DNA of 25,260 nt from a virus, in IMG/VR virus record IMGVR_UViG_3300023296_001674. One strand, written 5' to 3'. The notes beneath the pieces are model-generated. The model was not told where the DNA came from. It searched no databases and was given only the letters and a program-made list of their open reading frames with translations. Shown one piece after another: positions 3,110 through 24,368 of the stretch (within the stretch, counting starts at the first letter, position 1; every line of letters begins with the position of its first letter). A program made the position numbers and the translations under genes.

Positions 3110-3394
3110 GAGCAAACGAGATCGAATACAGTGTTAACGCGGAACGAGACTGCTAGGAACACTTAAAATATACCTAATATGGGCGCGTTGTGGATGGATT
3201 TCCTTTTGTGGAATGATAAAAGCAATGGTAGGAAGCAAAGCGACCTACTAGGGAAAGCGTTATATGCTTTCCTGATAAGTTATTTTGTATGGAAGTGCCA
3301 TTAAAGCAGAACAATTGGTTTGGCGACCAAGCACCTTCGGGGCATAAAATCTGCTACTACTATACTATTTTAATCATAACTAAGTGTCACAAAA

Positions 3395-3464
3395 TATTGT
3401 ATGGTGTAGTGGTAACACGCTGCCTTTATCGGCGGAGCCGTGGGTTCGAGTCCTACTATGATAT
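3395..3464 (+). tRNA. tRNA-like element (AU-rich acceptor, D and T arms fold; anticodon loop irregular; no CCA), possible pseudogene
   Basis: Acceptor TATTGTA/TATGATA; D stem GTGT/ACAC; T arm GTGGG-TTCGAGT-CCTAC. Anticodon stem CTGCC/GGCGG leaves only a 6-nt loop. Confidence 0.3.
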
Positions 3465-3565
3465 TTGGATTACGTTCAGTGTGCACACCGAACGCCACAA
3501 ATTATCTGTTATTATCGCGATAGTGATAGATAATGTTGGGTCACTTAGTTATGATTAAAGTTTTT

Positions 3566-3790
3566 AGGGTGTTCGTCTAGTGGATTAGGACGCGCCGCCT
3601 TGGGTAGTTGGAGTTCGATTCTCCTTAGCAACGGTTACGTAAATCCGCACGGTGAGACATTGGTTCGAATCCAATACATGTTAAAATAACGATTTCACAT
3701 GAGATGTATAGTTTTAATGGATAAATCAGGCATGAGCCTTGTGCGGCAAGATAGTGGGTTCGATTCCCCTTGCGTTGAATGTGAAATGAT
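3566..3790 (+). other. cluster of tRNA-derived remnants: three T-arm-like hairpins without complete cloverleaves
   Basis: T-arm-like hairpins: GGAG-TTCGATT-CTCC, ATTGG-TTCGAAT-CCAAT, GGG-TTCGATT-CCC. No matching acceptor stems or anticodon arms found by hand. Confidence 0.3.
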
Positions 3791-5653: not shown

Positions 5654-5728
5654 GCAGGGGTAGCTCAGTGGTAGAGCGGTTGGTTGAAGCCCAGCGCGTG
5701 AGGAGTTCGATTCTCTTTCCCTGCACCA
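5654..5728 (+). tRNA. tRNA-Phe (anticodon GAA), CCA encoded
   Basis: Acceptor GCAGGGG/TCCCTGC; D GCTC-AGTGGTA-GAGC; anticodon stem GTTGG/CCAGC, loop TTGAAGC; T arm AGGAG-TTCGATT-CTCTT. Confidence 0.75.
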
Positions 5729-5740
5729 ATACAATAATAT

Positions 5741-5816
5741 GGAACCCAGGTATATCTGGTGAGTACGCGTGGTTGAAGTTCACGAGGACGCAGTTCGATC
5801 CTGCGGGGTTCCACCA
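5741..5816 (+). tRNA. tRNA with anticodon GAA (second Phe-like isoacceptor), CCA encoded
   Basis: Acceptor GGAACCC/GGGTTCC; anticodon stem CGTGG/TCACG, loop TTGAAGT; T arm CGCAG-TTCGATC-CTGCG. Confidence 0.6.
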
Positions 5817-6937: not shown

Positions 6938-6967
6938 GCCGCTACTACTATTTATAACTTATACTAA

Positions 6968-7061
6968 GTCGGATTTCCCTAACTGGTGTGGGTAGAATCC
7001 ATAATATGCACTGGGTGATCCTTATGTGCTGCACGTGGTTCGATTCCACGATCCGGCTCCA
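6968..7061 (+). tRNA. tRNA-like, 94 nt (class-II-like length), CCA encoded; anticodon arm not resolved
   Basis: Acceptor GTCGGAT/ATCCGGC; 3-bp D stem CCC/GGG; T arm CGTGG-TTCGATT-CCACG; T73, CCA. Confidence 0.3.
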
Positions 7062-9080: not shown

Positions 9081-9166
9081 TCGGATATAGGAGAATTGGT
9101 AGACCCAGAAGATTGTTAATCTTCCGCAGCAATGCATTCCAGGTTCGAGTCCTGGTATCCGAGCCA
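9081..9166 (+). tRNA. class-II (long variable arm) tRNA with Leu-like D loop (GAATTGGTAGAC), G73 and anticodon GUU (Asn codons); CCA encoded
   Basis: Acceptor TCGGATA/TATCCGA perfect; anticodon stem GAAGA/TCTTC perfect, loop TTGTTAA; variable arm 14 nt (GCA-GCAA-TGC); T arm CCAGG-TTCGAGT-CCTGG; G73-CCA. Confidence 0.55.
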
Positions 9167-11228: not shown

Positions 11229-11498
11229 ATGGATAATAGTACATTAATAGCGTTAGGAAGTTTGTTGTTTGCCATGATTGGTGGATTTTGGGGTGTCATA
11301 ACATACATCCTTGGAATCATCAAGGTGGAAAACGTTGAACGTCGTGGTGTCCAAGAAAAATTATATATGCGCGATGATGTAGCCAAAGATGTAATGAACG
11401 AAAGTTTAACAGAAGTAAAAAGTACCATCCGTGATACGAATGATAGACTCATACGTGTAGAAACAATATTATATGAAAGAACTGATAGAACAAAATAA
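11229..11498 (+). CDS. small membrane protein (N-terminal TM helix plus charged coiled-coil tail), 89 aa
   Basis: Hydrophobic segment LIALGSLLFAMIGGFWGVITYILGII followed by a charged tail; overlaps the next gene start. Confidence 0.5.
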   Translation: MDNSTLIALGSLLFAMIGGFWGVITYILGIIKVENVERRGVQEKLYMRDDVAKDVMNESLTEVKSTIRDTNDRLIRVETILYERTDRTK

Positions 11499-12108
11499 AA
11501 TATGGTTTTTAAGCAAAACGGTAATACGTTGTATAAATAGTTATATGGTTGATTTAAGAAAGAGTTTGCAAACACCAAAAGTTTGCTGTATTGAATGTAA
11601 AACAATATTTAGAACTAATCATTTTGTTAGACACTCGAAGAAGCGATGTATTGAGTGGAAAAAGAAAAACGGCATGATCCCAAAAGGGAAGCGTGGCGGT
11701 TGGAATAAAGGATTAACGAAAATGACTAGTTCGTTGGTCAAAAAAGGAACCGATACTTATCGTCGCCGTTATGAAAATGGTGAATATACACGACGCACAC
11801 AAACCGATGATATAAAGAAACAATATTGGCAAGATTGTAAATTTAAATTCAATGTTTATAATTATCCTGAAATATTTGACTTAAATTTACTCGATAAATT
11901 TGGGTGGTATCATCCTGTAGAAAATCCAAGTGGCGTAAGTAGAGATCATATTATTTCTGTATCATATGGATGGAAAAATGGTATAGATTCGAATATTATT
12001 AATCATATAGCCAATTGTAAATTGATGATTCATTTAGAAAATAACAAAAAAAATAATCGATCTGATTTATTATTAGAAGAATTATTACAAAAAATACACT
12101 CTATGTAG
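11473..12108 (+). CDS. HNH-family homing-endonuclease-like protein with N-terminal Cys-rich motif (CCIECKT…H…H); paralog 3 of 4; TAG stop
   Basis: C-terminal block YWQDCKFKFNVYNYPEIFDLNLLDKFGWYHPVENPSGVSRDHIISVSYGWKNGIDSNIINHIANCKLMIHLENNKKN shared with the other three. Confidence 0.8.
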   Translation: MKELIEQNKIWFLSKTVIRCINSYMVDLRKSLQTPKVCCIECKTIFRTNHFVRHSKKRCIEWKKKNGMIPKGKRGGWNKGLTKMTSSLVKKGTDTYRRRYENGEYTRRTQTDDIKKQYWQDCKFKFNVYNYPEIFDLNLLDKFGWYHPVENPSGVSRDHIISVSYGWKNGIDSNIINHIANCKLMIHLENNKKNNRSDLLLEELLQKIHSM

Positions 12109-12391: not shown

Positions 12392-12452
12392 ATTATGACA
12401 TGATAGTTTAAACAGCTTATTAAATCCATGGATTGTGAGCAAAAGTAGAACA

Positions 12453-12470
12453 TGCCCGTATTCGGGGCAA
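12453..12470 (+). other. GC hairpin GCCCG-TATT-CGGGG in spacer (no T run)
   Basis: Seen in sequence; function unknown. Confidence 0.2.
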
Positions 12471-12507
12471 GATGAGGTGAAATGCCTTGAATGTCGCCAA
12501 GTTTAAT

Positions 12508-12851: not shown

Positions 12852-12938
12852 AGAAGTACTTTGTATTGGTGAACTCAGCAGTCTCCAAAACTGTGTCGCA
12901 TTTGTGACTGGTAGGTTCGAATCCTACTACTTCTGCCA
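12852..12938 (+). tRNA. class-II tRNA (16-nt variable arm with 5-bp stem, G73) carrying anticodon CCA (UGG codon); CCA encoded
   Basis: Acceptor AGAAGTA/TACTTCT perfect; anticodon stem GCAGT/ACTGT, loop CTCCAAA; variable arm GTCGC-ATTT-GTGAC; T arm GTAGG-TTCGAAT-CCTAC perfect. Confidence 0.55.
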
Positions 12939-13327: not shown

Positions 13328-13400
13328 ATACCTCCGCTGATGGTTCAGACATAAGCTTGCGAAGCTTGTTGGGAAAGTTCGATTCTTTTCGGGGGTTCCA
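13328..13400 (+). tRNA. tRNA-Arg-like (anticodon GCG) with the same atypical D architecture as 7933-8004; CCA encoded
   Basis: Acceptor ACCTCCG/CGGGGGT; hairpin CTGA-TGGTT-TCAG; anticodon stem TAAGC/GCTTG, loop TTGCGAA; T arm GAAAG-TTCGATT-CTTTT. Confidence 0.5.
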
Positions 13401-13439
13401 ATATTGTTATAGCTATGGAAATTAGTTCCTTCTTATCCC

Positions 13440-13479
13440 AACCTGTAGGTCGTAGGTTCGAATCCTGCTCCTCGCGCCA
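13440..13479 (+). pseudogene. tRNA 3' fragment (T arm GTAGG-TTCGAAT-CCTGC + TCCTCGC-G-CCA) with no 5' partner
   Basis: No complementary 5' acceptor strand within 100 nt upstream. Confidence 0.3.
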
Positions 13480-13484
13480 ATTAT

Positions 13485-13531
13485 GCGGGGATAGCTCAGT
13501 GGTAGAGCAACTGGCAATTTTACTGGTTCCA
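13485..13531 (+). pseudogene. truncated tRNA: intact 5' half (GCGGGGA-TA-GCTC-AGTGGTA-GAGC-A…) joined after the anticodon loop directly to …TTCCA
   Basis: 47 nt; D arm perfect; T arm and 3' acceptor missing. Confidence 0.35.
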
Positions 13532-13562
13532 ATTATTATAGCAATATTTTATTAAATAGGTC

Positions 13563-13764: not shown

Positions 13765-13843
13765 TTGACTAGTAGCTCAGTGGTTTAGAGCGGGGAGTTC
13801 TAAACTCTCGACAGCGTTGGTTCAAATCCAACCTGGTCAACCA
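13765..13843 (+). tRNA. putative amber-suppressor tRNA (anticodon CUA, reads UAG); CCA encoded
   Basis: Acceptor TGACTAG/CTGGTCA; D GCTC-AGTGGTTTA-GAGC; anticodon stem GGGAG/CTCTC, loop TTCTAAA (U33, C34-U35-A36, A37); 7-nt variable region; T arm GTTGG-TTCAAAT-CCAAC; A73-CCA. Confidence 0.6.
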
Positions 13844-13850
13844 ATACTAA

Positions 13851-14022
13851 GCGGGTATCGTATAATGGTATTATCGCAGCCTTCCATGTGATATGTTTAA
13901 CATATCTCAGGTTGAGCCATTTATTGGCTCCTTGAAGGTCGAGGGTTCAGACCCCATCCGGTTTAAGCCCGGTAGACCAACTTAAGCTGATGACGGGAGT
14001 TCGATTCTCCCTACCCGCTCCA
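13851..14022 (+). tRNA. tRNA-Gly (anticodon UCC) interrupted between positions 37 and 38 by a ~98-nt structured insert; same acceptor as the other Gly genes; CCA encoded
   Basis: 5' exon GCGGGTA-TC-GTAT…GCAGC-CTTCCA (13851-13886). 3' exon A-GCTGA-TGAC-GGGAG-TTCGATT-CTCCC-TACCCGC-T-CCA (13985-14022). First 18 nt identical to the tRNA at 12508. Confidence 0.55.
13887..13984 (+). other. intron-like insertion inside tRNA-Gly(UCC): four consecutive hairpins
   Basis: Hairpins: GATATG-TTTAA-CATATC; GAGCCA-TTTA-TTGGCTC; GGTC…GACC with a T-loop-like GGG-TTCAGAC-CCC; CCGG-TTTAAGC-CCGG. Too short for a canonical group I intron. Confidence 0.4.
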
Positions 14023-14026
14023 ATAT

Positions 14027-14818
14027 TTGATAAATAGTTATATGAAATGTAAACAATGTAAAATATCATTTACCCCTATCCCACAAGCAAAAAAAGGTAT
14101 ATTTTGTTCGCACGATTGTCATAATGTATACCAGCGCGTAAATACTCGTGAGCAATACTTAAAAAATCCCAAACGGTGTATTTTTTGTGATGATATAATA
14201 TCATATAGAGAAAATATAAAAGTGGCGAAGTTTTGCAATAGGTCTTGCGGGGCAAAATATAATAATAAAAGACGTACAGAATGCGGATACACCCCAAGTC
14301 ATAAAAAATGGTCTAGTGGTAAAATATCTGCTAAAATGTCATCAAAAATGCGCCGTGCGGATATCAAATCAAGTGTCGTGTTTGGTGATTTTACTATAAT
14401 AACATTTGCTATATGCAATATTACGAATAAACCATATGTTCTACAAACACCGCATGGTGGTATAAAGCAAATATCACCATATATTAAATCATCTAAACAG
14501 ATATATTATGAGCAAGCCAAATTTCGATTTAATGTATATGACTATCCAGATATATTTGATATAACACTTTTAGAAAAATATGGATGGTATACATGTCCCG
14601 GCAAGAAACGAAAAAATCAAAAAAAGAATATAAATGGTGTAAGTAGAGATCATATAATATCTATCAATGATGGATTTAAGAATGGGTATGATCCATATAT
14701 TTTAGCACATCCTGCTAATTGTCGATTGATTAAACAAGTGGATAATGTTAAAAAATTAGATAAATCTAATATGTCATATGACGAGTTATTGATTAACATA
14801 AAACAATGGAATGGATAG
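14027..14818 (+). CDS. HNH-family homing-endonuclease-like protein with N-terminal Cys-rich zinc-finger-like motifs; paralog 4 of 4; TAG stop
   Basis: N-terminus MKCKQCKISF…FCSHDCHNVYQ…FCNRSCGAKYNN. C-terminal block …NGVSRDHIISINDGFKNGYDPYILAHPANCRLIKQVDNVKK. Confidence 0.8.
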   Translation: MINSYMKCKQCKISFTPIPQAKKGIFCSHDCHNVYQRVNTREQYLKNPKRCIFCDDIISYRENIKVAKFCNRSCGAKYNNKRRTECGYTPSHKKWSSGKISAKMSSKMRRADIKSSVVFGDFTIITFAICNITNKPYVLQTPHGGIKQISPYIKSSKQIYYEQAKFRFNVYDYPDIFDITLLEKYGWYTCPGKKRKNQKKNINGVSRDHIISINDGFKNGYDPYILAHPANCRLIKQVDNVKKLDKSNMSYDELLINIKQWNG

Positions 14819-16799: not shown

Positions 16800-17129
16800 A
16801 TGGATAAAGCTGCGCTAAAAACACTTTCCGATACTCTTAATCGGATATGGGGAATCCCTGAACCAAGGGTCTATTATCCGAATAAACATTTCGAAAAACC
16901 TGAACCAGTTGAACAGACAATGTTCTCAGTGTTCATTCTTGACGCTGGTCCTAAACGGATTAACGTCATTAAAGAAATCAGATCAATCTTAGGATTGACC
17001 CTGAAAGAATCAAAGGATTTTGTTGATAATATAGACAAGAGCCTTGTTCAAGAAGACTTAGAAAAATGGGATGCAGATGCATTAGCCGAAACATTATCAA
17101 ATGTTGGAGCAACTGTTGAAGTTTCTTAA
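16800..17129 (+). CDS. ribosomal protein bL12 (L7/L12) C-terminal-domain homolog with a non-canonical N-terminus
   Basis: C-terminal 70 aa FSVFILDAGPKRINVIKEIRSILGLTLKESKDFVDNIDKSLVQEDLEKWDADALAETLSNVGATVEVS align by eye with bacterial bL12 CTD (FDVIL…KVAVIK.VR..TGLGLKEAKDLVE…EAG..VEVK). Confidence 0.65.
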   Translation: MDKAALKTLSDTLNRIWGIPEPRVYYPNKHFEKPEPVEQTMFSVFILDAGPKRINVIKEIRSILGLTLKESKDFVDNIDKSLVQEDLEKWDADALAETLSNVGATVEVS

Positions 17130-17225: not shown

Positions 17226-17241
17226 TTGTGGAGGCAATTAT

Positions 17242-17325
17242 GCGCGTAGCCGGTATGTTGGTACTACCACTGGTCTTCCAAACCAGCGCGAAAGCATTGG
17301 GGTTTGATTCCCCCTACCCGCTCCA
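17242..17325 (+). tRNA. tRNA-Gly (anticodon UCC) with an 11-nt variable arm (84 nt); Gly-family acceptor; CCA encoded
   Basis: Acceptor GCGCGTA/TACCCGC-T-CCA; D GGTA/TACC; anticodon stem CTGGT/ACCAG perfect, loop CTTCCAA; variable CGCGAAAGCAT; T arm (T)GGGG-TTTGATT-CCCC(C). Confidence 0.6.
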
Positions 17326-17471: not shown

Positions 17472-18023
17472 ATGCGCGGAACATTAGAAGTGATTACTGG
17501 CCCAATGTTTGCCGGTAAGACGACAGAAATAATAAAACGATTATTATGGTCAAAACATCAAGGTAAATCAACAATTATATACAAACCAGCAATGGATGAT
17601 AGATATAGTGAAACTGAAATAGTTACACATACCAAATTTTCATACGAAGCAACATCCATCATTGATAGTTTTAATATCAATCCAACATACGATCATTATT
17701 TTTTTGATGAAATACAGTTTCATGATAAAAATATTGTTCCATCTATAACTAAATTATTAGATGAAGGAAAAAATGTAACGGTGGCTGGTTTAGACGCTGA
17801 TTATAAAGGTGTTGCATTTGCGAACACTGCTACGTTAATGGCGATGGCAGACGAAGTATTTAAGATAAAATCGCATTGTAGTTTATGTGGCAAAGATGCT
17901 GCTAAAACATTTAAAACTGGTTCGACAAGCGACCAGCGCATAGAATTGGGTGAAAATGACTTATACCGTGCCAGATGTAATGAGCATTGGTATGTATCAG
18001 GAACTGACGATAGTTTTTCTTGA
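17472..18023 (+). CDS. tdk: thymidine kinase
   Basis: N-terminal P-loop ITGPMFAGKTTEIIKR and C-terminal Cys cluster CSLCGKDA…RCNEHW typical of type II thymidine kinases; TGA stop. Confidence 0.9.
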   Translation: MRGTLEVITGPMFAGKTTEIIKRLLWSKHQGKSTIIYKPAMDDRYSETEIVTHTKFSYEATSIIDSFNINPTYDHYFFDEIQFHDKNIVPSITKLLDEGKNVTVAGLDADYKGVAFANTATLMAMADEVFKIKSHCSLCGKDAAKTFKTGSTSDQRIELGENDLYRARCNEHWYVSGTDDSFS

Positions 18024-18079: not shown

Positions 18080-19063
18080 ATGGATAACAACAATTACAAC
18101 GATTTAAAACAGCGTTTGGTTAATGCAGGATGTTTCGAACGAGCGACATCGCATTATGTTCTACGTATTACAGCAATTCTAATTGCTTATGTGGGAGCAT
18201 ATTTTGTTCTGCTTACACAGCCACTAGGATTGGTTGCAGTGGGTGCATTGATTATTGCAGCCTTTGCCAGCGTTCAGGCTGGTTTCATTTCACACGATGC
18301 TGGTGATGGCGGTATTACATCAAATAAGATGCTATCTACCGGTATGCGACAATTCTTTTTATCGTTTGTTACTGGTGTGAGTAGTTCATATTTTCATGCA
18401 CTACATAAAGTGCATCACAAAACAATGTTTAAAGGATCATCGAAATCATCCGACACAGTTTCAGAAAATGAATACGAAGGCAAATGGTTGAAGAAATTAG
18501 TTTCACGTGATGGTTTGTTATTCATGGTAACGATGGTTACATTACGGGGATTCACATTCAAATTTGAAAGTGTAAAATATATGCTTAAACACGCCAATAA
18601 AACCGCCGCAGATCAACTGTTGGTGGGATTGCACGTTGTAGCATGGCTGATCGTTCCAATGATGATTATTGGACCAGTAGCCATTCTAAACTATGCATTA
18701 TTGACGTTGTTGATTGGACCTTATATCGGAACGGTATTGGTTATTAATCATGCCGGTATGGTAACAGCAAACCGACAAATGCATTTGCCTAAATTTGAAC
18801 GCGTAGTAAATACTACACGCAATCTTGGTGACGGCGTTTGGAACAATCTGTTCTTCGGTGGTGTAAACAACCATATTGAACACCATTTGTTTCCGGGTGT
18901 GCCAGTGCCAAATCTAGGTGAAGCTAGAAAGATTACTGAAGCCTTTTGTGAAGAACGTGGTATTAAATACACCAAAGCTTCATATTTCAGCGCATTAATC
19001 GAAGCCAAAGACCATTTCAAGGGTTTGTCTTCACAGAGATTAGTTGCTGAAGCACTCAACTAA
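18080..19063 (+). CDS. membrane fatty-acid desaturase-family protein (three His boxes)
   Basis: HDAGD, HKVHH and HIEHHLFP motifs plus multiple hydrophobic helices; SD TAGGAGA upstream. Confidence 0.8.
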   Translation: MDNNNYNDLKQRLVNAGCFERATSHYVLRITAILIAYVGAYFVLLTQPLGLVAVGALIIAAFASVQAGFISHDAGDGGITSNKMLSTGMRQFFLSFVTGVSSSYFHALHKVHHKTMFKGSSKSSDTVSENEYEGKWLKKLVSRDGLLFMVTMVTLRGFTFKFESVKYMLKHANKTAADQLLVGLHVVAWLIVPMMIIGPVAILNYALLTLLIGPYIGTVLVINHAGMVTANRQMHLPKFERVVNTTRNLGDGVWNNLFFGGVNNHIEHHLFPGVPVPNLGEARKITEAFCEERGIKYTKASYFSALIEAKDHFKGLSSQRLVAEALN

Positions 19064-19073
19064 GGGAAACTAT

Positions 19074-19550
19074 ATGTTTAAATTTAATGTATGTAATTAC
19101 AGTGATTCACTGTATTCAATGGACAACTATACCAAGGCTATTGGTATAGTTGATCCAGATGAAAAAGTAACACCATCAGAAAAATATCATGTTGCACGAT
19201 GCCACGATATAGTAATGCAGGAACACCCTTGGGTGGCTCCCACAATAGACCAGTTTGTCGCAATTATGAATTTTGCAGAAGATTTTACAGACGATGATGT
19301 TGTAATGATTCATTGCTCTGCTGGTATATCACGCAGCACTGCAACTGCCATATTGTTATTAATGTTGCATGGCGCTGACGAAGAAGAAGCATTTAATGCT
19401 GTTGAACAAAATAGACCAAACATGAATCCAAACACATTGATTCTTCGCTTTGCTGATGAATTATTAGGAATGGATGGCGGTTTGATTGAATATCATAAAC
19501 AATGGATGGCGAAACGGGTTATTAAACCAGTTAGTTTCGCAGGACAATAA
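19074..19550 (+). CDS. Cys-based (CX5R) protein phosphatase, dual-specificity/tyrosine-phosphatase-like
   Basis: Active-site signature VMIHCSAGISRSTA. Start chosen at the Met at 19074, which has SD AAGGGAAA; the ORF-track start at 19044 overlaps the upstream gene. Confidence 0.65.
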   Translation: MFKFNVCNYSDSLYSMDNYTKAIGIVDPDEKVTPSEKYHVARCHDIVMQEHPWVAPTIDQFVAIMNFAEDFTDDDVVMIHCSAGISRSTATAILLLMLHGADEEEAFNAVEQNRPNMNPNTLILRFADELLGMDGGLIEYHKQWMAKRVIKPVSFAGQ

Positions 19551-20000: not shown

Positions 20001-20279
20001 ATGAATAAAATTTATGAATTTCATTGGGAAGTTGGTAGAATGGGTGACGTTGAAGGTTTGTTCGTTGCCGATGATGCTGACGTTGCTAATTTGATCGGTA
20101 AAGAAATTTACTTTGGTGAAATTCTTGGAAAACATTCCGAAGTTTATGGAACGTTGGAAAAGGGCGATCTTGTTGTGAAATCAGATGATCCAGAATTTGT
20201 TGAAAAATTCATCGAAATAATGGGTTACGGAACAGTATCTGGTTATAATCCATTTGATTATTATGATCCAGATCAATAA
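20001..20279 (+). CDS. hypothetical acidic protein (92 aa)
   Basis: SD AAAGGA upstream; highly acidic composition. Confidence 0.55.
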   Translation: MNKIYEFHWEVGRMGDVEGLFVADDADVANLIGKEIYFGEILGKHSEVYGTLEKGDLVVKSDDPEFVEKFIEIMGYGTVSGYNPFDYYDPDQ

Positions 20280-20328
20280 TAAAATATAGACAAACACTTC
20301 GTTTGGGTGTATAAATATAGAATAATAT

Positions 20329-20436
20329 TTCCAAGTAGCTCAGATGGTAGAGCGTCTGACTGTGGAACAGATGAGCCTAAAGCTTTGAAGTTCAAATTTA
20401 ATCAGAATGTCGGCGGTTCGATCCCGTCCTTGGAAG
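20329..20436 (+). tRNA. aberrant tRNA-like gene, 108 nt, no CCA: canonical 5' half and T arm separated by a ~39-nt insertion after the anticodon arm
   Basis: Acceptor TTCCAAG/CTTGGAA perfect; D GCTC-AGATGGTA-GAGC; anticodon-like stem TCTGA/(A)CAGA with loop CTGTGGA (GUG); insert contains TTGAA-G-TTCAA; T arm GGCGG-TTCGATC-CCGTC. Confidence 0.35.
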
Positions 20437-20439
20437 CAA

Positions 20440-20575
20440 ATAAAAGTTTTAGGTCGTTCAATAAGCCATGTTTAGCGGCATGGTTAGGACAAGCGGGTAT
20501 AACCGCTAAATGGTATGCTGCAATCGGGGTTAACACTTATTGCAACGAGGTGAAAATCCACCCATAGAAATCAAT
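20440..20575 (+). ncRNA. highly structured spacer (candidate small RNA): hairpins CCATG-TTTAGCGG-CATGG and GCGG-GTATAA-CCGC
   Basis: Dense local complementarity; ORF 20307-20567 is discounted because it overlaps tRNA-like sequence. Confidence 0.25.
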
Positions 20576-20667
20576 GCCTCGGTAGCTCAGAAAAGCAACG
20601 TAAGTTGTAGTGTAGTAGCAGGTGACTGAACCTCACCGTGTCGGTAGTTCGAATCTATCCTGGGGCA
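20576..20667 (+). tRNA. aberrant tRNA-like gene, 92 nt, no CCA: ~20 extra nt in the D region
   Basis: Acceptor GCCTCGG/CTGGGGC; 5' D stem GCTC with no partner; anticodon-like stem GGTGA/TCACC with loop CTGAACC (GAA); T arm GGTAG-TTCGAAT-CTATC. Confidence 0.35.
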
Positions 20668-20711
20668 CAAATAATACAAAGGAAGATAACAATATCAAGT
20701 GAATAACATAT

Positions 20712-20787
20712 AGTTCCGTAGCTCAGTGGATAGAGCGCAACTTTGCGAAAGTTGAAGTCGGTGGTTCGATCCCACTCGGGACTGCCA
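20712..20787 (+). tRNA. tRNA-Arg (anticodon GCG) with canonical body (CCGTAGCTCAGTGGATAGAG… resembles the E. coli Arg-ACG body), CCA encoded
   Basis: Acceptor AGTTCCG/CGGGACT; D GCTC-AGTGGATA-GAGC; anticodon stem CAACT/AGTTG perfect, loop TTGCGAA; T arm GGTGG-TTCGATC-CCACT. Confidence 0.75.
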
Positions 20788-20806
20788 ATAACGATGAGGA
20801 TGTGAT

Positions 20807-23740: not shown

Positions 23741-24368
23741 ATGCTTAGAGGAACACGTTTGATGACTGGTGCGGAAGCATCTACATACACGAACACTGTT
23801 GACACACTACGGAGGTGTCTTCATCGATAATAATGTCGAAGAAGTTATAGTTCCGTCGTTATGGGAACAGCAGACATTTATTGATAAAGCAGGAAGTGAA
23901 ATTGTAAATCAGATGTGGGCATTTGAAGATAAGAAAAATCGCCCCGTATGTTTGATACCAGAAGTTACTGGTGTTATACAAGAAATGTGGCGCGATGATT
24001 GGAGTAAATCCAAACCAAAGCCATATTCTATTTTTTATGTGAATCGTTGTTATCGTTATGAACGACCACAGAAGGGTAGATATAGAGAATTCACACAAAT
24101 CGGATTAGAAATTCTTGGTGATACATCAGGGAATGATTACGATATGGCAATTAATTTATTGCAAAAGTGTCTCGATTGTTTTACTATAGATTATAAACTT
24201 ACAGAAACGGTACAACGCGGTTTGGCGTATTATGTTGATGATGGGTTTGAAGTCGAATGTGAGAAGTTGGGCGCACAGAAGCAAATTGCTGGTGGTGGTC
24301 GATACAATGAAGGTATTGGTTGGGCTATCGGCGTTGATAGATTAATATTGGGGATTGATGATGACTAG
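23741..24368 (+). CDS. miniaturised histidyl-tRNA-synthetase-like protein (class II motifs 2 and 3) requiring a +1 frameshift near 23804-23812, or a frameshifted pseudogene
   Basis: Frame A (ATG 23741, SD AAAGGAGAAAG) encodes MLRGTRLMTGAEASTYTNTVDTL (compare HisRS …[23 protein letters not shown]) and stops at 23828. Frame B (+1, open from 23769) encodes …YGGVF…MWAFEDKKNRPVCLIPEVTG…CYRYERPQKGRYREFTQIG…IAGGGRYNEGIGWAIGVDRL. No anticodon-binding domain. Confidence 0.55.

Follow-up and report, generated by a model that had tools for sequence, protein, structure and literature searches.

Two adjacent tRNA-like genes in the tRNA cluster of a huge phage have most likely lost the ability to decode, which would make them relics or repurposed tRNA-like RNAs rather than examples of a new kind of intron. 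The genes, which we call X1 (20329–20436) and X2 (20576–20667), lie with their neighbours in a 25,260-nucleotide stretch of viral DNA that forms part of this cluster (IMG/VR record IMGVR_UViG_3300023296_001674; the window). A first-pass annotation had offered three readings of them: intron-bearing tRNAs, pseudogenes and repurposed small RNAs. The last two survive our analysis, whereas introns fail as an explanation of X2 and are only formally possible for X1; from the sequence of a single genome, a pseudogene and a repurposed RNA appear inseparable. An independent Logan assembly agrees with the window at every base of the locus, which is therefore not an artefact, and this identity also means that the comparison revealed no polymorphism at the locus.

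Table 1 Features of the X1–X2 locus, with positions counted from the first base of the window
Feature	Position	Strand	Basis
Possible sigma-70-like promoter, TAGACA-17 nt-TATAAA	20287..20315	+	By eye, 10/12 consensus positions; weak
X1, 5′ part	20329..20363	+	Rfam alignment; alignment with insertion-free tRNA-Asn genes
X1, 35-nt insertion GGAACAGATGAGCCTAAAGCTTTGAAGTTCAAATT inside the Asn anticodon	20364..20398	+	Covariance model and homology
X1, 3′ part	20399..20436	+	Alignments
CAA in place of CCA (X1)	20437..20439	+	Comparison with the other tRNA genes of the array
Spacer, 139 nt	20437..20575	+	Fold z-scores; Rfam, nhmmer
X2, 92-nt tRNA-Phe(GAA)-derived gene	20576..20667	+	Rfam, 36.7 bits; similarity to canonical tRNA-Phe
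X2, D-loop segment AAAAGCAACGTAAGTTGTAGTG, replacing canonical TCGG (G18-G19)	20591..20612	+	Rfam alignment; comparison with relatives
X2, anticodon loop CUGAACC (GAA 20628–20630; C37 C38 at 20631–20632)	20626..20632	+	Rfam alignment
CAA in place of CCA (X2)	20668..20670	+	Comparison with the expected CCA
Canonical tRNA-Arg(GCG), CCA encoded, next gene of the same array	20712..20787	+	Context

Both genes retain the tRNA fold. The Rfam scan of 20329–20667 suggested at first pass matched X1 (54.1 bits, E = 3e-9) and X2 (36.7 bits, E = 1.8e-4) to the full RF00005 model (positions 1–71 of 71), each above the gathering score of 29 bits. As annotated, the acceptor stems are perfect or nearly so, with 7/7 pairs each and two G-U pairs in X2 (GCCTCGG/CTGGGGC, discriminator A), and the T arms are canonical (GGCGG-TTCGATC-CCGTC in X1 and GGTAG-TTCGAAT-CTATC in X2). 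The absence of an encoded CCA also stands: CAAATAA lies 3′ of both genes, in contrast to the CCA-ATA of the other tRNA genes.

By homology, X1 is a tRNA-Asn(GUU) gene. Its 5′ part comprises the acceptor strand TTCCAAG, a D arm (GCTC-AGATGGTA-GAGC) whose loop AGATGGTA contains G18-G19, the anticodon stem strand TCTGA and loop residues C32 U33 G34 U35; its 3′ part resumes with U36 A37 A38, followed by the stem strand TCAGA, the variable loop ATGTC, the T arm, the acceptor strand CTTGGAA and discriminator G73. In the covariance model, a perfect 5-bp anticodon stem (UCUGA/UCAGA) closes around a 42-nt loop, and thus 35 extra nucleotides lie inside the anticodon loop, breaking the anticodon after U35 or, as one T can be assigned to either end, after G34 (20363–20397 in place of 20364–20398). 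With such a loop and a divided anticodon, X1 lacks the 7-nt loop with a contiguous anticodon that a functional elongator has. The covariance model and homology overturn the earlier placement of 39 nt between the anticodon and T arms.

After removal of the insertion, the near-full-length BLAST matches of X1 were tRNA-Asn whether an Asn, His or Lys loop was substituted, which eliminates a His or Lys identity, and the His-like anticodon arm implied by the earlier parse was wrong. tRNA-Asn(GUU) genes on 27 metagenome contigs match X1 exactly in anticodon arm and variable loop and also have U1-A72 and G73, and a search of these 27 relatives for an insertion of up to 41 nt found none. Taking out exactly 35 nt restores the loop CUGUUAA of these relatives, and ARAGORN then calls tRNA-Asn(gtt); X1 thus has the homologous body, U1-A72, G73 and, once the insert is removed, GUU. 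Run in intron mode on the intact gene, ARAGORN instead gave a tRNA-His(gtg) with a 17-nt intron, a parse that needs a mismatched stem and that we rejected. Annotation pipelines should be read with care here, as what is reported as an intron-bearing tRNA-His is by homology a broken tRNA-Asn.

In alignment with insertion-free tRNA-Asn genes, every base flanking the X1 insertion is retained, so that the insertion is precise. Its sequence occurs once in the window and has no significant similarity to any sequence compared. It can fold as GAAC-AGAU-GAGC / GCUU-UGAA-GUUC around the loop CUAAA, a structure no more stable than shuffled sequence (z −0.12), and the insert hairpin of X2 likewise falls within the shuffle range (z −0.72). 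The TTGAA-G-TTCAA hairpin noted at first pass is present as the palindrome TTGAAGTTCAA (= TTTGAAGTTCAAA) at 20385–20395. The internal duplication of CAGATG-AGC noted with it was not supported (104/1000 shuffles scored equally well). We also rejected an origin of the insert as a duplicate of the gene's own exons, as the similarity was no better than with shuffles. A weak motif, AGATGAG-N-TTGAA, is common to the insert and to 12470–12491, a post hoc find.

The site of the X1 insertion resembles a known intron site. Group I introns at 35/36 of bacterial tRNA-Asn(GUU) are ~260–570 nt long, self-splicing and end in a terminal G (Nakagawa et al. 2026, PMC13011429). X1 is the same tRNA interrupted at the same site inside the anticodon, after a 5′ exon ending in U, and it too has its anticodon misassigned by annotation tools. 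Unlike those introns, the X1 insert has only 35 nt, ends in U rather than G and lacks both a group I core (P3–P9, ~200 nt or more) and the U-G pair expected in P1, and RF00028 gave no match in it at E up to 10. We considered on this basis whether X1 might be a group I scar, in which an intron at 35/36 lost its core, left 35 nt behind and killed the gene. Such an origin, proposed for X1 only and compatible with a pseudogene, seems improbable to us. The isoacceptor and the 35/36 site would be those of the self-splicing introns of bacterial tRNA-Asn genes, the 5′ exon ends in U next to a P1-like CUGU/ACAG pairing, and Endonuclease VII/HNH-like open reading frames are scattered among the tRNA genes of the window. 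Against it, no trace of the group I model can be recognized in the insertion, which lacks a terminal G and is not significantly similar to the sequences compared, and the window holds no group I intron anywhere.

X2 is a tRNA-Phe(GAA) derivative: its relatives are canonical tRNA-Phe genes, its body is homologous to Phe tRNAs, and it has the anticodon GAA and A73. Its D loop has 26 nt as against 6 in the model, or ~20–22 nt extra, which bears out the earlier count of ~20 additional nucleotides in the D-loop region; the GTAGTG/GTAGTAG repeat reported there is also present, as GTAGT-GTAGT-AG. The inserted segment includes a hairpin, GCAAC-GUAA-GUUGU (20595–20608), and extends into the tandem GTAGT-GTAGT, of which it holds the start; MAFFT alternatively placed a 20-nt gap at 20589–20608. 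GG occurs nowhere in 20585–20618, whereas a D-loop GG was present in 291 of 298 phage tRNAs (7/298 were without it). The D stem contains one extra U. In the anticodon loop, X2 has CUGAACC where a relative (L036) has CUGAAAA. A functional elongator has a purine at position 37; X2 has C37-C38, and neither C37 nor CC at 37-38 was found in any of the 298 phage tRNAs.

These lesions bear directly on whether the insertions could be true introns, removed after transcription by a phage or host activity to give working tRNA-Asn and tRNA-Phe once CCA is added. We consider this quite unlikely for the pair. As no GG exists in 20585–20618, no contiguous excision from X2 can regenerate G18-G19, and the gene also carries C37-C38 and the extra D-stem U; X2 was accordingly rejected as an intron-bearing gene. 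For X1, the restored Asn loop, identical to that of the 27 relatives and read by ARAGORN as tRNA-Asn, argues for removal, as do the proven group I site at 35/36 (PMC13011429) and the 5′ ACAG of the insert, which can pair with exon CUGU like a P1 helix. However, inserts of 35 nt and 20 nt are much too short for any self-splicing intron, the would-be splice site has U-A instead of U-G and no terminal G, and we found no match to RF00028 or another ribozyme and no bulge-helix-bulge motif; indeed, no non-tRNA Rfam family matched the locus at E up to 10. X1 and X2 are moreover redundant with intact paralogues in the window (Asn at 9081–9166; Phe at 5654–5728 and 5741–5816).

Archaeal tRNAs provide a parallel, in that their non-canonical introns are likewise short and interrupt the D loop or positions of the anticodon loop other than 37/38. 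X1 and X2 differ in belonging to a bacterial virus, in having no helix-bulge-helix pairing between exon and insert and, for X2, in not being restored by excision. A bulge-helix-bulge intron would need a helix of 4 bp pairing the exon end with the 3′ part of the insert, between two 3-nt bulges containing the splice sites. When tested manually, ACAG, the complement of the X1 exon end, occurred only at the 5′ end of the insert, and no GCUCAG complement was found at the 3′ end of the X2 insert. No splicing endonuclease or ligase was detected among the window proteins scanned.

A precedent for introns in such a genome comes from the Lak megaphages, whose tRNA genes, including Phe(GAA) and Gly(TCC), carry conserved insertions termed ‘enigmatic introns’ (Devoto et al. 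2019, PMC6784885). The Lak insertions are 79–114 nt long, all lie beside position 37, and have an initial small hairpin and a T-arm-like minihelix (PMC6784885). As in Lak, the insertions here are short, non-coding and without an Rfam match, and they interrupt huge-phage tRNA genes (contig up to 570,750 bp). They differ in size and position, with 35 nt at 35/36 or 34/35 in X1 and a D-loop site in X2 as opposed to 37/38 in Lak, and in the point lesions of X2 and the missing CCA of both genes; neither X1 nor X2 is of the Lak type. Far closer to that type is tRNA-Gly(UCC) at 13851–14019 of the window, which has a 97-nt structured insertion and keeps its CCA. An activity that removed true introns could also act on this insertion and on the Lak ‘enigmatic introns’. 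Also in favour of introns, insertion-bearing tRNA genes are enriched in the window, with several among ~30 compared with 1/272 in 28 other phage arrays.

We favour decoding-dead tRNA relics whose ends are still processed as the best explanation of X1 and X2, with a confidence of about one half. Under this explanation, X1 would be a derived copy of tRNA-Asn(GUU) in which the 35-nt insertion split the anticodon and CCA changed to CAA. X2 would be a derived copy of tRNA-Phe(GAA) in which an unrelated, hairpin-forming segment of 20–22 nt replaced the G18-G19 elbow contact, a D-stem U was gained through the GTAGT slippage repeat, CC appeared at 37-38 and CCA again became CAA. Both genes would still be transcribed with the array. 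A weak promoter candidate (Table 1) has a predicted start ~6–7 nt before X1. Since neither acceptor stem nor T arm is damaged, RNase P would probably generate the 5′ ends of both genes, and because no CCA is encoded the 3′ ends would be made by an RNase Z-type enzyme or by exonuclease trimming. The expected products are unspliced tRNA-like RNAs of 108 nt and 92 nt, unable to read codons: pseudo-tRNAs in a fast-turning-over array that also holds intact paralogues. The homology and the lesions themselves are read from the sequences of X1, X2 and their relatives.

Several observations favour relics. Like tRNA pseudogenes, X1 and X2 are homologous to tRNAs, carry lesions that disable them and have intact paralogues; no splicing apparatus is visible, and loss of CCA is tied to aberrant loops. 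The window contains 29 RF00005 matches of at least 29 bits, of which only four are without CCA (those at 3394 and 3566, X1 and X2), all four with aberrant loops; an insertion was found in 1/25 of the CCA-bearing genes (Fisher p ~2e-4, calculated by hand). Loss of CCA alone is no proof of death, because other phage arrays contain sporadic tRNAs that lack CCA and are otherwise normal. A different phage array contains a CCA-less gene with extra arms (L035:3807–3930), comparable to X1 and X2, which resemble the tRNA pseudogenes of phage arrays in their clear homology, their lesions at function-critical positions and the intact paralogues nearby. Unlike those pseudogenes, X1 and X2 have unusually well-kept helices and T loops and share the CAA change. 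If they are relics, they would document the turnover of huge-phage tRNA arrays by insertion, slippage and CCA loss.

Other features fit relics less well. The helices are intact, with 21/21 pairs in X1 and only G-U pairs and one bulged U as blemishes in X2, and the T loops are canonical, whereas neutral decay would be expected to strike stems too. The X1 insertion is precise with complete flanks, and adjacent genes carry an identical CCA-to-CAA change. Both X1/X2 and the 3394/3566 pair flank a spacer that folds better than shuffles. Finally, the CCA-bearing tRNA-Gly(UCC) with its 97-nt insertion and the conserved tRNA insertions of Lak phages (PMC6784885) suggest that a removal route may exist in huge phages.

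The spacer between X1 and X2 was described at first pass as highly structured over 20440–20575; structure is supported, but it is moderate rather than high. Predicted stability exceeded that of shuffled sequences for the whole spacer (z −2.49) and for its core at 20452–20563 (z −2.62), with 6 and 1, respectively, of 200 shuffles per test reaching the stability of the native sequence. The core consists of a 12-bp closing helix (20454–20465 with 20536–20548) followed by a hairpin, GGUG-AAAAUC-CACC. Rfam gave no match for 20437–20575 at E up to 10, and nhmmer found no homologue of the spacer in the sequences searched. For an 86-aa open reading frame overlapping X1 and the spacer, searches at E up to 10 yielded no homologue, and it is the sole member of its cluster. 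Part of the spacer (GCGGGTAT...AATGGTAT) recalls tRNA-Gly at its 5′ end. We nevertheless rejected the view that the spacer is pieced together from fragments of tRNAs, its k-mer enrichment not being significant (k = 8, 47/500 shuffles as good), and the X1 insert, X2 insert, spacer and tRNA-Gly insertion have no meaningful similarity to one another.

A structured spacer between two CCA-less genes raises the question of whether the dead genes were kept as processing handles, with acceptor stem and T arm serving as recognition elements for RNase P and RNase Z. Cleavage by an RNase Z-type enzyme 3′ of the X1 discriminator, possible because CCA is absent, and by RNase P at the 5′ end of X2 would release the 139-nt spacer as a small RNA with defined ends. 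In its general form, in which CCA-less dead modules of the huge phage release structured RNAs of ~100–140 nt from two pairs in the window, we regard this idea as unlikely. The stability of the spacer (z −2.49 and −2.62) is consistent with it, as is the exact retention of features used by RNase P and RNase Z while decoding features were lost. A second pair of CCA-less aberrant tRNA-like genes (3394–3465 and 3566–3683) likewise flanks a structured spacer (100 nt, 3466–3565, z −2.57), whereas no such structure is seen in four spacers that separate canonical tRNAs with CCA (z +0.55 to −0.77). Two YrlA-like permuted modules in the window imply, moreover, that tRNA mimicry is used in this genome. 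Set against this, there are only two cases with modest z-scores, the spacers of the two pairs share no similarity, neither a homologue nor covariation supports that between X1 and X2, and the role requires neither the absence of CCA from X2 nor the internal insertions. Residues 20376–86 of the X1 insert can pair over 11 bp with the trailer at 20443–53, at the 5′ end of the spacer; the duplex energy is at chance (z −0.88), and we rejected a functional pairing.

In murine herpesvirus MHV68 TMERs and in MALAT1-mascRNA, tRNA-like handles are released by tRNA-processing enzymes, and the tRNA cluster of phage T4 yields stable RNAs of puzzling function. X1, X2 and their spacer resemble these by analogy only, as non-decoding folds or structured RNAs in a tRNA transcription unit. 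If the genes did act as handles, a bacterial virus would have its own equivalent of the herpesvirus TMER and MALAT1-mascRNA routes, and a function could be assigned to the long-puzzling stable RNAs of phage tRNA clusters. YrlA (RF02553), in which T arm, closed acceptor and D arm follow one another in permuted order within a long stem, is a further case of tRNA mimicry without decoding, from which X1 and X2 differ in their normal, non-permuted arm order; the sole YrlA match at the locus scored 15.7 bits against a threshold of 69 and joins the T arm of X2 to the D arm of the next tRNA.

Theta ribozymes, which are minimal HDV-like ribozymes, occur beside CCA-less phage tRNAs and start ≤5 nt from the tRNA end (Kienbeck et al. 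2024, PMC10879173). The spacer is similar in being a structured element 3′ of a CCA-less phage tRNA. It differs in that 15 unpaired A/U-rich nucleotides come first after X1 and in having a 12-bp closing helix that does not fit the P1-P2-P3-P4 order of a nested double pseudoknot. With this incompatible helix order and no HDV-type Rfam match, a theta/HDV-like ribozyme was rejected by a check made by hand, without the published descriptor.

The anticodon loops could also be viewed in terms of defence. Enzymes of the colicin E5 type cleave the tRNAs for Asn, Asp, His and Tyr at 34/35, and the altered anticodon loop of X2 and the interrupted GUU of X1 are where such nucleases cut. As uncharged, CCA-less mimics, X1 and X2 might absorb host defence nucleases that target tRNAs, or tRNA-modifying toxins. 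This would extend a role that phage tRNAs are known to play against anticodon nucleases, in that they evade host tRNA nucleases or replace their targets (PMC10264068, PMC11464382). We nevertheless judge decoys very improbable, as a decoy should preserve the recognition site, which in X1 is destroyed, and no defence or anti-defence gene was identified beside the locus.

None of the collections searched contained an orthologous locus. INPHARED phage records gave generic tRNA sequence matches only, searches of IMG/VR with the downstream exonuclease protein and the X1 pattern returned nothing, and a scan of GTDB genomes for the X1 exon–insert junction was also empty. Homologues of the downstream exonuclease number 6 and lie on short contigs only; in the nearest of them (L003), a different tRNA lies upstream. 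No tRNA array adjoins the genes for relatives of the DUF7277 protein in IMG/VR, and the upstream 92-aa protein is widespread, with protein genes as its neighbours.

The window as a whole is unusually rich in aberrant tRNA-like genes, and further degraded tRNA-like pieces occur in it besides those described above. If X1 and X2 prove to be processed tRNA-like RNAs or spliced tRNAs, they would stand beside the unexplained Lak ‘introns’ and point to an undescribed RNA-processing route in phage-infected bacteria, and the whole window offers a better test bed for this question than X1 and X2 alone. The window also contains an amber-suppressor-type tRNA.

X1 and X2, the two tRNA-like genes (108 and 92 nt) on either side of a 139-nt spacer, each matched the Rfam tRNA model (threshold 29 bits) from end to end in the Rfam scan of the locus proposed by the first-pass annotation. 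Both retain an intact acceptor stem and T arm and are followed directly by CAAATAA instead of CCAATA, which bears out the earlier description of two tRNA-like genes with sound acceptor stems and T arms and no encoded CCA. Neither was detected by ARAGORN with default settings. An independent Logan assembly gives an identical sequence at the locus, which is therefore not an assembly artefact.

Coordinates of X1, X2 and other features of the window
Feature	Coordinates	Description
tRNA-like gene	3394-3465	anticodon loop of 6 nt; without CCA
Spacer	3466-3565	100 nt; fold z -2.57
tRNA-like gene	3566-3683	~45-nt insertion with second T arm GGAGTTCGATTCTCC; without CCA
tRNA-like gene	6967-7058	long variable arm
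tRNA-like gene	9081-9166	long variable arm
Permuted tRNA-like module	9167-9310	fold z -3.28
Paralogous ORF	11473-12108	endonuclease VII / HNH match, E = 4.5e-6
Spacer	12445-12497	upstream of tRNA-Gly(GCC)
tRNA-like gene	12852-12934	long variable arm
Permuted tRNA-like module	13400-13550	Rfam YrlA at 13445-13511, 32.4 bits, below threshold of 69
CUA tRNA	13766-13843	with CCA; 57.1 bits; 'Pyl' in ARAGORN
tRNA-Gly(UCC)	13851-14019	97-nt insertion after A37, fold z -4.47; with CCA
Paralogous ORF	14027-14818	endonuclease VII / HNH match, E = 2.2e-4
Ribosomal L12-like protein	16800-17129	
tRNA-like gene	17241-17322	long variable arm
Thymidine kinase	17472-18023	
Fatty-acid desaturase	18080-19063	
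Dual-specificity phosphatase	19044-19550	
X1	20329-20436	Rfam tRNA, 54.1 bits
X1 insertion	20364-20398	or shifted one base left
Spacer	20437-20575	fold z -2.49
Spacer core	20452-20563	closed by 12-bp helix; fold z -2.62
X2	20576-20667	Rfam tRNA, 36.7 bits (lowest in window)
Truncated HisRS-like ORF	23769-24368	

Although both genes noticed at first pass are real, the insertion in X1 had been mislocated, between the anticodon arm and the T arm. The covariance-model fold has a perfect five-pair anticodon stem (UCUGA/UCAGA) closing a 42-nt loop, so the extra 35 nt lie in the anticodon loop and not in the variable region. In intron mode ARAGORN read X1 as tRNA-His(gtg) with a 17-nt intron, resembling the first parse; we rejected this reading, which requires a mismatched stem and leaves the variable region long and unpaired. 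By alignment, the insertion splits the anticodon GUU at U35/U36 or, alternatively, at G34/U35. X1 without the 35 nt was called tRNA-Asn by ARAGORN, and when an Asn, His or Lys loop was substituted after cutting out the insertion and phage records were searched, tRNA-Asn genes gave the near-full-length matches whichever of the three loops was used. Metagenome contigs were scanned with the X1 anticodon arm and variable loop, permitting 0–41 nt at the insertion site. This recovered 27 contigs, each with an unbroken TCTGACTGTTAATCAGAATGTCGG in a gene called tRNA-Asn(gtt) by ARAGORN and having U1-A72 and G73, as X1 does; none of these relatives carries an insertion. These comparisons show that X1 descends from a tRNA-Asn gene. 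In another aquatic phage array, a tRNA-Asn closely related to X1 (L032:1910-1985) is otherwise normal, with CAA replacing CCA.

The relatives of X2 are ordinary tRNA-Phe(GAA) genes, and its descent from a tRNA-Phe gene is established at the level of sequence comparison. Alignment against these relatives counted five changes: the D-loop bases including G18-G19 are replaced by about 20–22 nt able to form GCAAC-GUAA-GUUGU, the 3′ strand of the D-stem has an extra U from a GTAGT-GTAGT slippage repeat, A37 and A38 are each C, and CCA is CAA. Among 298 phage tRNAs, taken from the window and from 28 further arrays, none has C at position 37 or CC at 37–38, and 291 have the D-loop GG. X1 and X2 each bear lesions at positions required for decoding, and intact paralogues of both are present in the window.

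The insertions could be genuine introns, excised by an unknown route, which we consider improbable. No GG occurs within 20585-20618 of X2, and therefore no excision restores a normal D loop. Only tRNA was matched by Rfam at E values up to 10 across 20250-20800, neither insert can form a bulge-helix-bulge exon-insert helix when the sequence is read by eye, and shuffled sequences fold as stably as the insert hairpins of X1 and X2 (z -0.12 and -0.72). The nearest precedent, the 'introns' of Lak megaphage tRNAs, are 79–114 nt long, adjoin position 37 and include a minihelix resembling a T arm (PMC6784885), a description that neither gene fits. In bacteria, self-splicing group I introns are proven at position 35/36 of tRNA-Asn(GUU) (PMC13011429), one of the two placements of the X1 insertion, and the X1 exon ends in U beside a P1-like pairing (CUGU/ACAG). 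Unlike those introns, the 35-nt insert is too short for a catalytic core and ends in U, not G, and its would-be splice-site pair is U-A. It could at most be a group I scar, an unlikely origin that would be compatible with X1 being a relic.

The spacer, described earlier as highly structured, does fold better than its shuffles, but only moderately so; its core is equalled by 1 of 200. That X1 and X2 serve as processing handles for a spacer RNA is nevertheless doubtful. The spacer has no Rfam match and no homologue was found. The X1 insert is complementary to the spacer 5′ end over 11 bp, with duplex energy at chance level, and hints of tRNA-derived fragments in the spacer were not significant. 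A theta/HDV-like ribozyme was rejected, as the helix order is unfit and such a ribozyme would have to begin at the tRNA end.

We put about even confidence in X1 and X2 being plain relics, whose transcripts would stay unspliced, be excised by tRNA end-processing enzymes and take no part in decoding. The chief argument against plain decay is that all helices are kept and that X1 and X2 have the CAA change in common; a role as decoys is very unlikely. None of the collections searched yielded an orthologous locus. The pair belongs with two familiar sorts of phage tRNA gene, pseudogenes and those bearing insertions. Of modest interest by itself, it gains from its setting in a window where non-canonical tRNA-like genes are unusually frequent.

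The AT-rich window (36% G+C) is part of a huge phage genome; contigs carrying its proteins reach 570,750 bp. ARAGORN and Rfam find ~30 tRNA genes on the + strand, nearly all encoding CCA then ATA, with auxiliary genes around the array. The CUA tRNA is of amber-suppressor type, hinting that stop-codon reassignment in the phage is possible. Two ORFs, paralogous to each other and weakly matching endonuclease VII / HNH (PHROG), are scattered between tRNA genes, one beginning directly after the insertion-bearing tRNA-Gly.

A permissive Rfam search and direct reading identified further aberrant genes. The four Rfam hits that reach the threshold but lack CCA all have aberrant loops, whereas among the 25 with CCA only one has an insertion (Fisher p ~2e-4, our own arithmetic). 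The CCA-bearing tRNA-Gly(UCC) has a very structured insertion matching no Rfam family, and shares isoacceptor, site and size class with the Lak A2 tRNA-Gly(TCC) 'intron'. In the 28 other arrays, CCA is encoded by 246 of 272 tRNAs, normal but CCA-less genes occur sporadically, and the only intron call falls on a CCA-less tRNA-like oddity. In an aquatic phage array, a tRNA-like gene that has extra arms and lacks CCA sits between two tRNA-Leu genes (L035:3807-3930).

The layout of X1, spacer and X2 is paralleled by the pair flanking the structured 100-nt spacer, whereas all four spacers tested between canonical tRNAs were unstructured. Two permuted modules (T arm, closed acceptor hairpin, D arm, long enclosing stem) have a YrlA / Y RNA-like layout. 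Long variable arms also occur outside the usual Leu/Ser/Tyr set, two capped by GNRA-type loops (GCA-GCAA-TGC in Asn, GC-GAAA-GC in a Gly(UCC)-like gene); for several such genes the tRNA-Sec model gives the only match, at a score below threshold. Finally, the spacer upstream of tRNA-Gly(GCC) bears a weak likeness to the X1 insertion and its surroundings, sharing an AGATGAG-hairpin-TTGAA motif (twice in the window, 0.08 expected). For the local alignment, 7 of 300 shuffles score at least as well (p ~0.02). This spacer may be a further relic.
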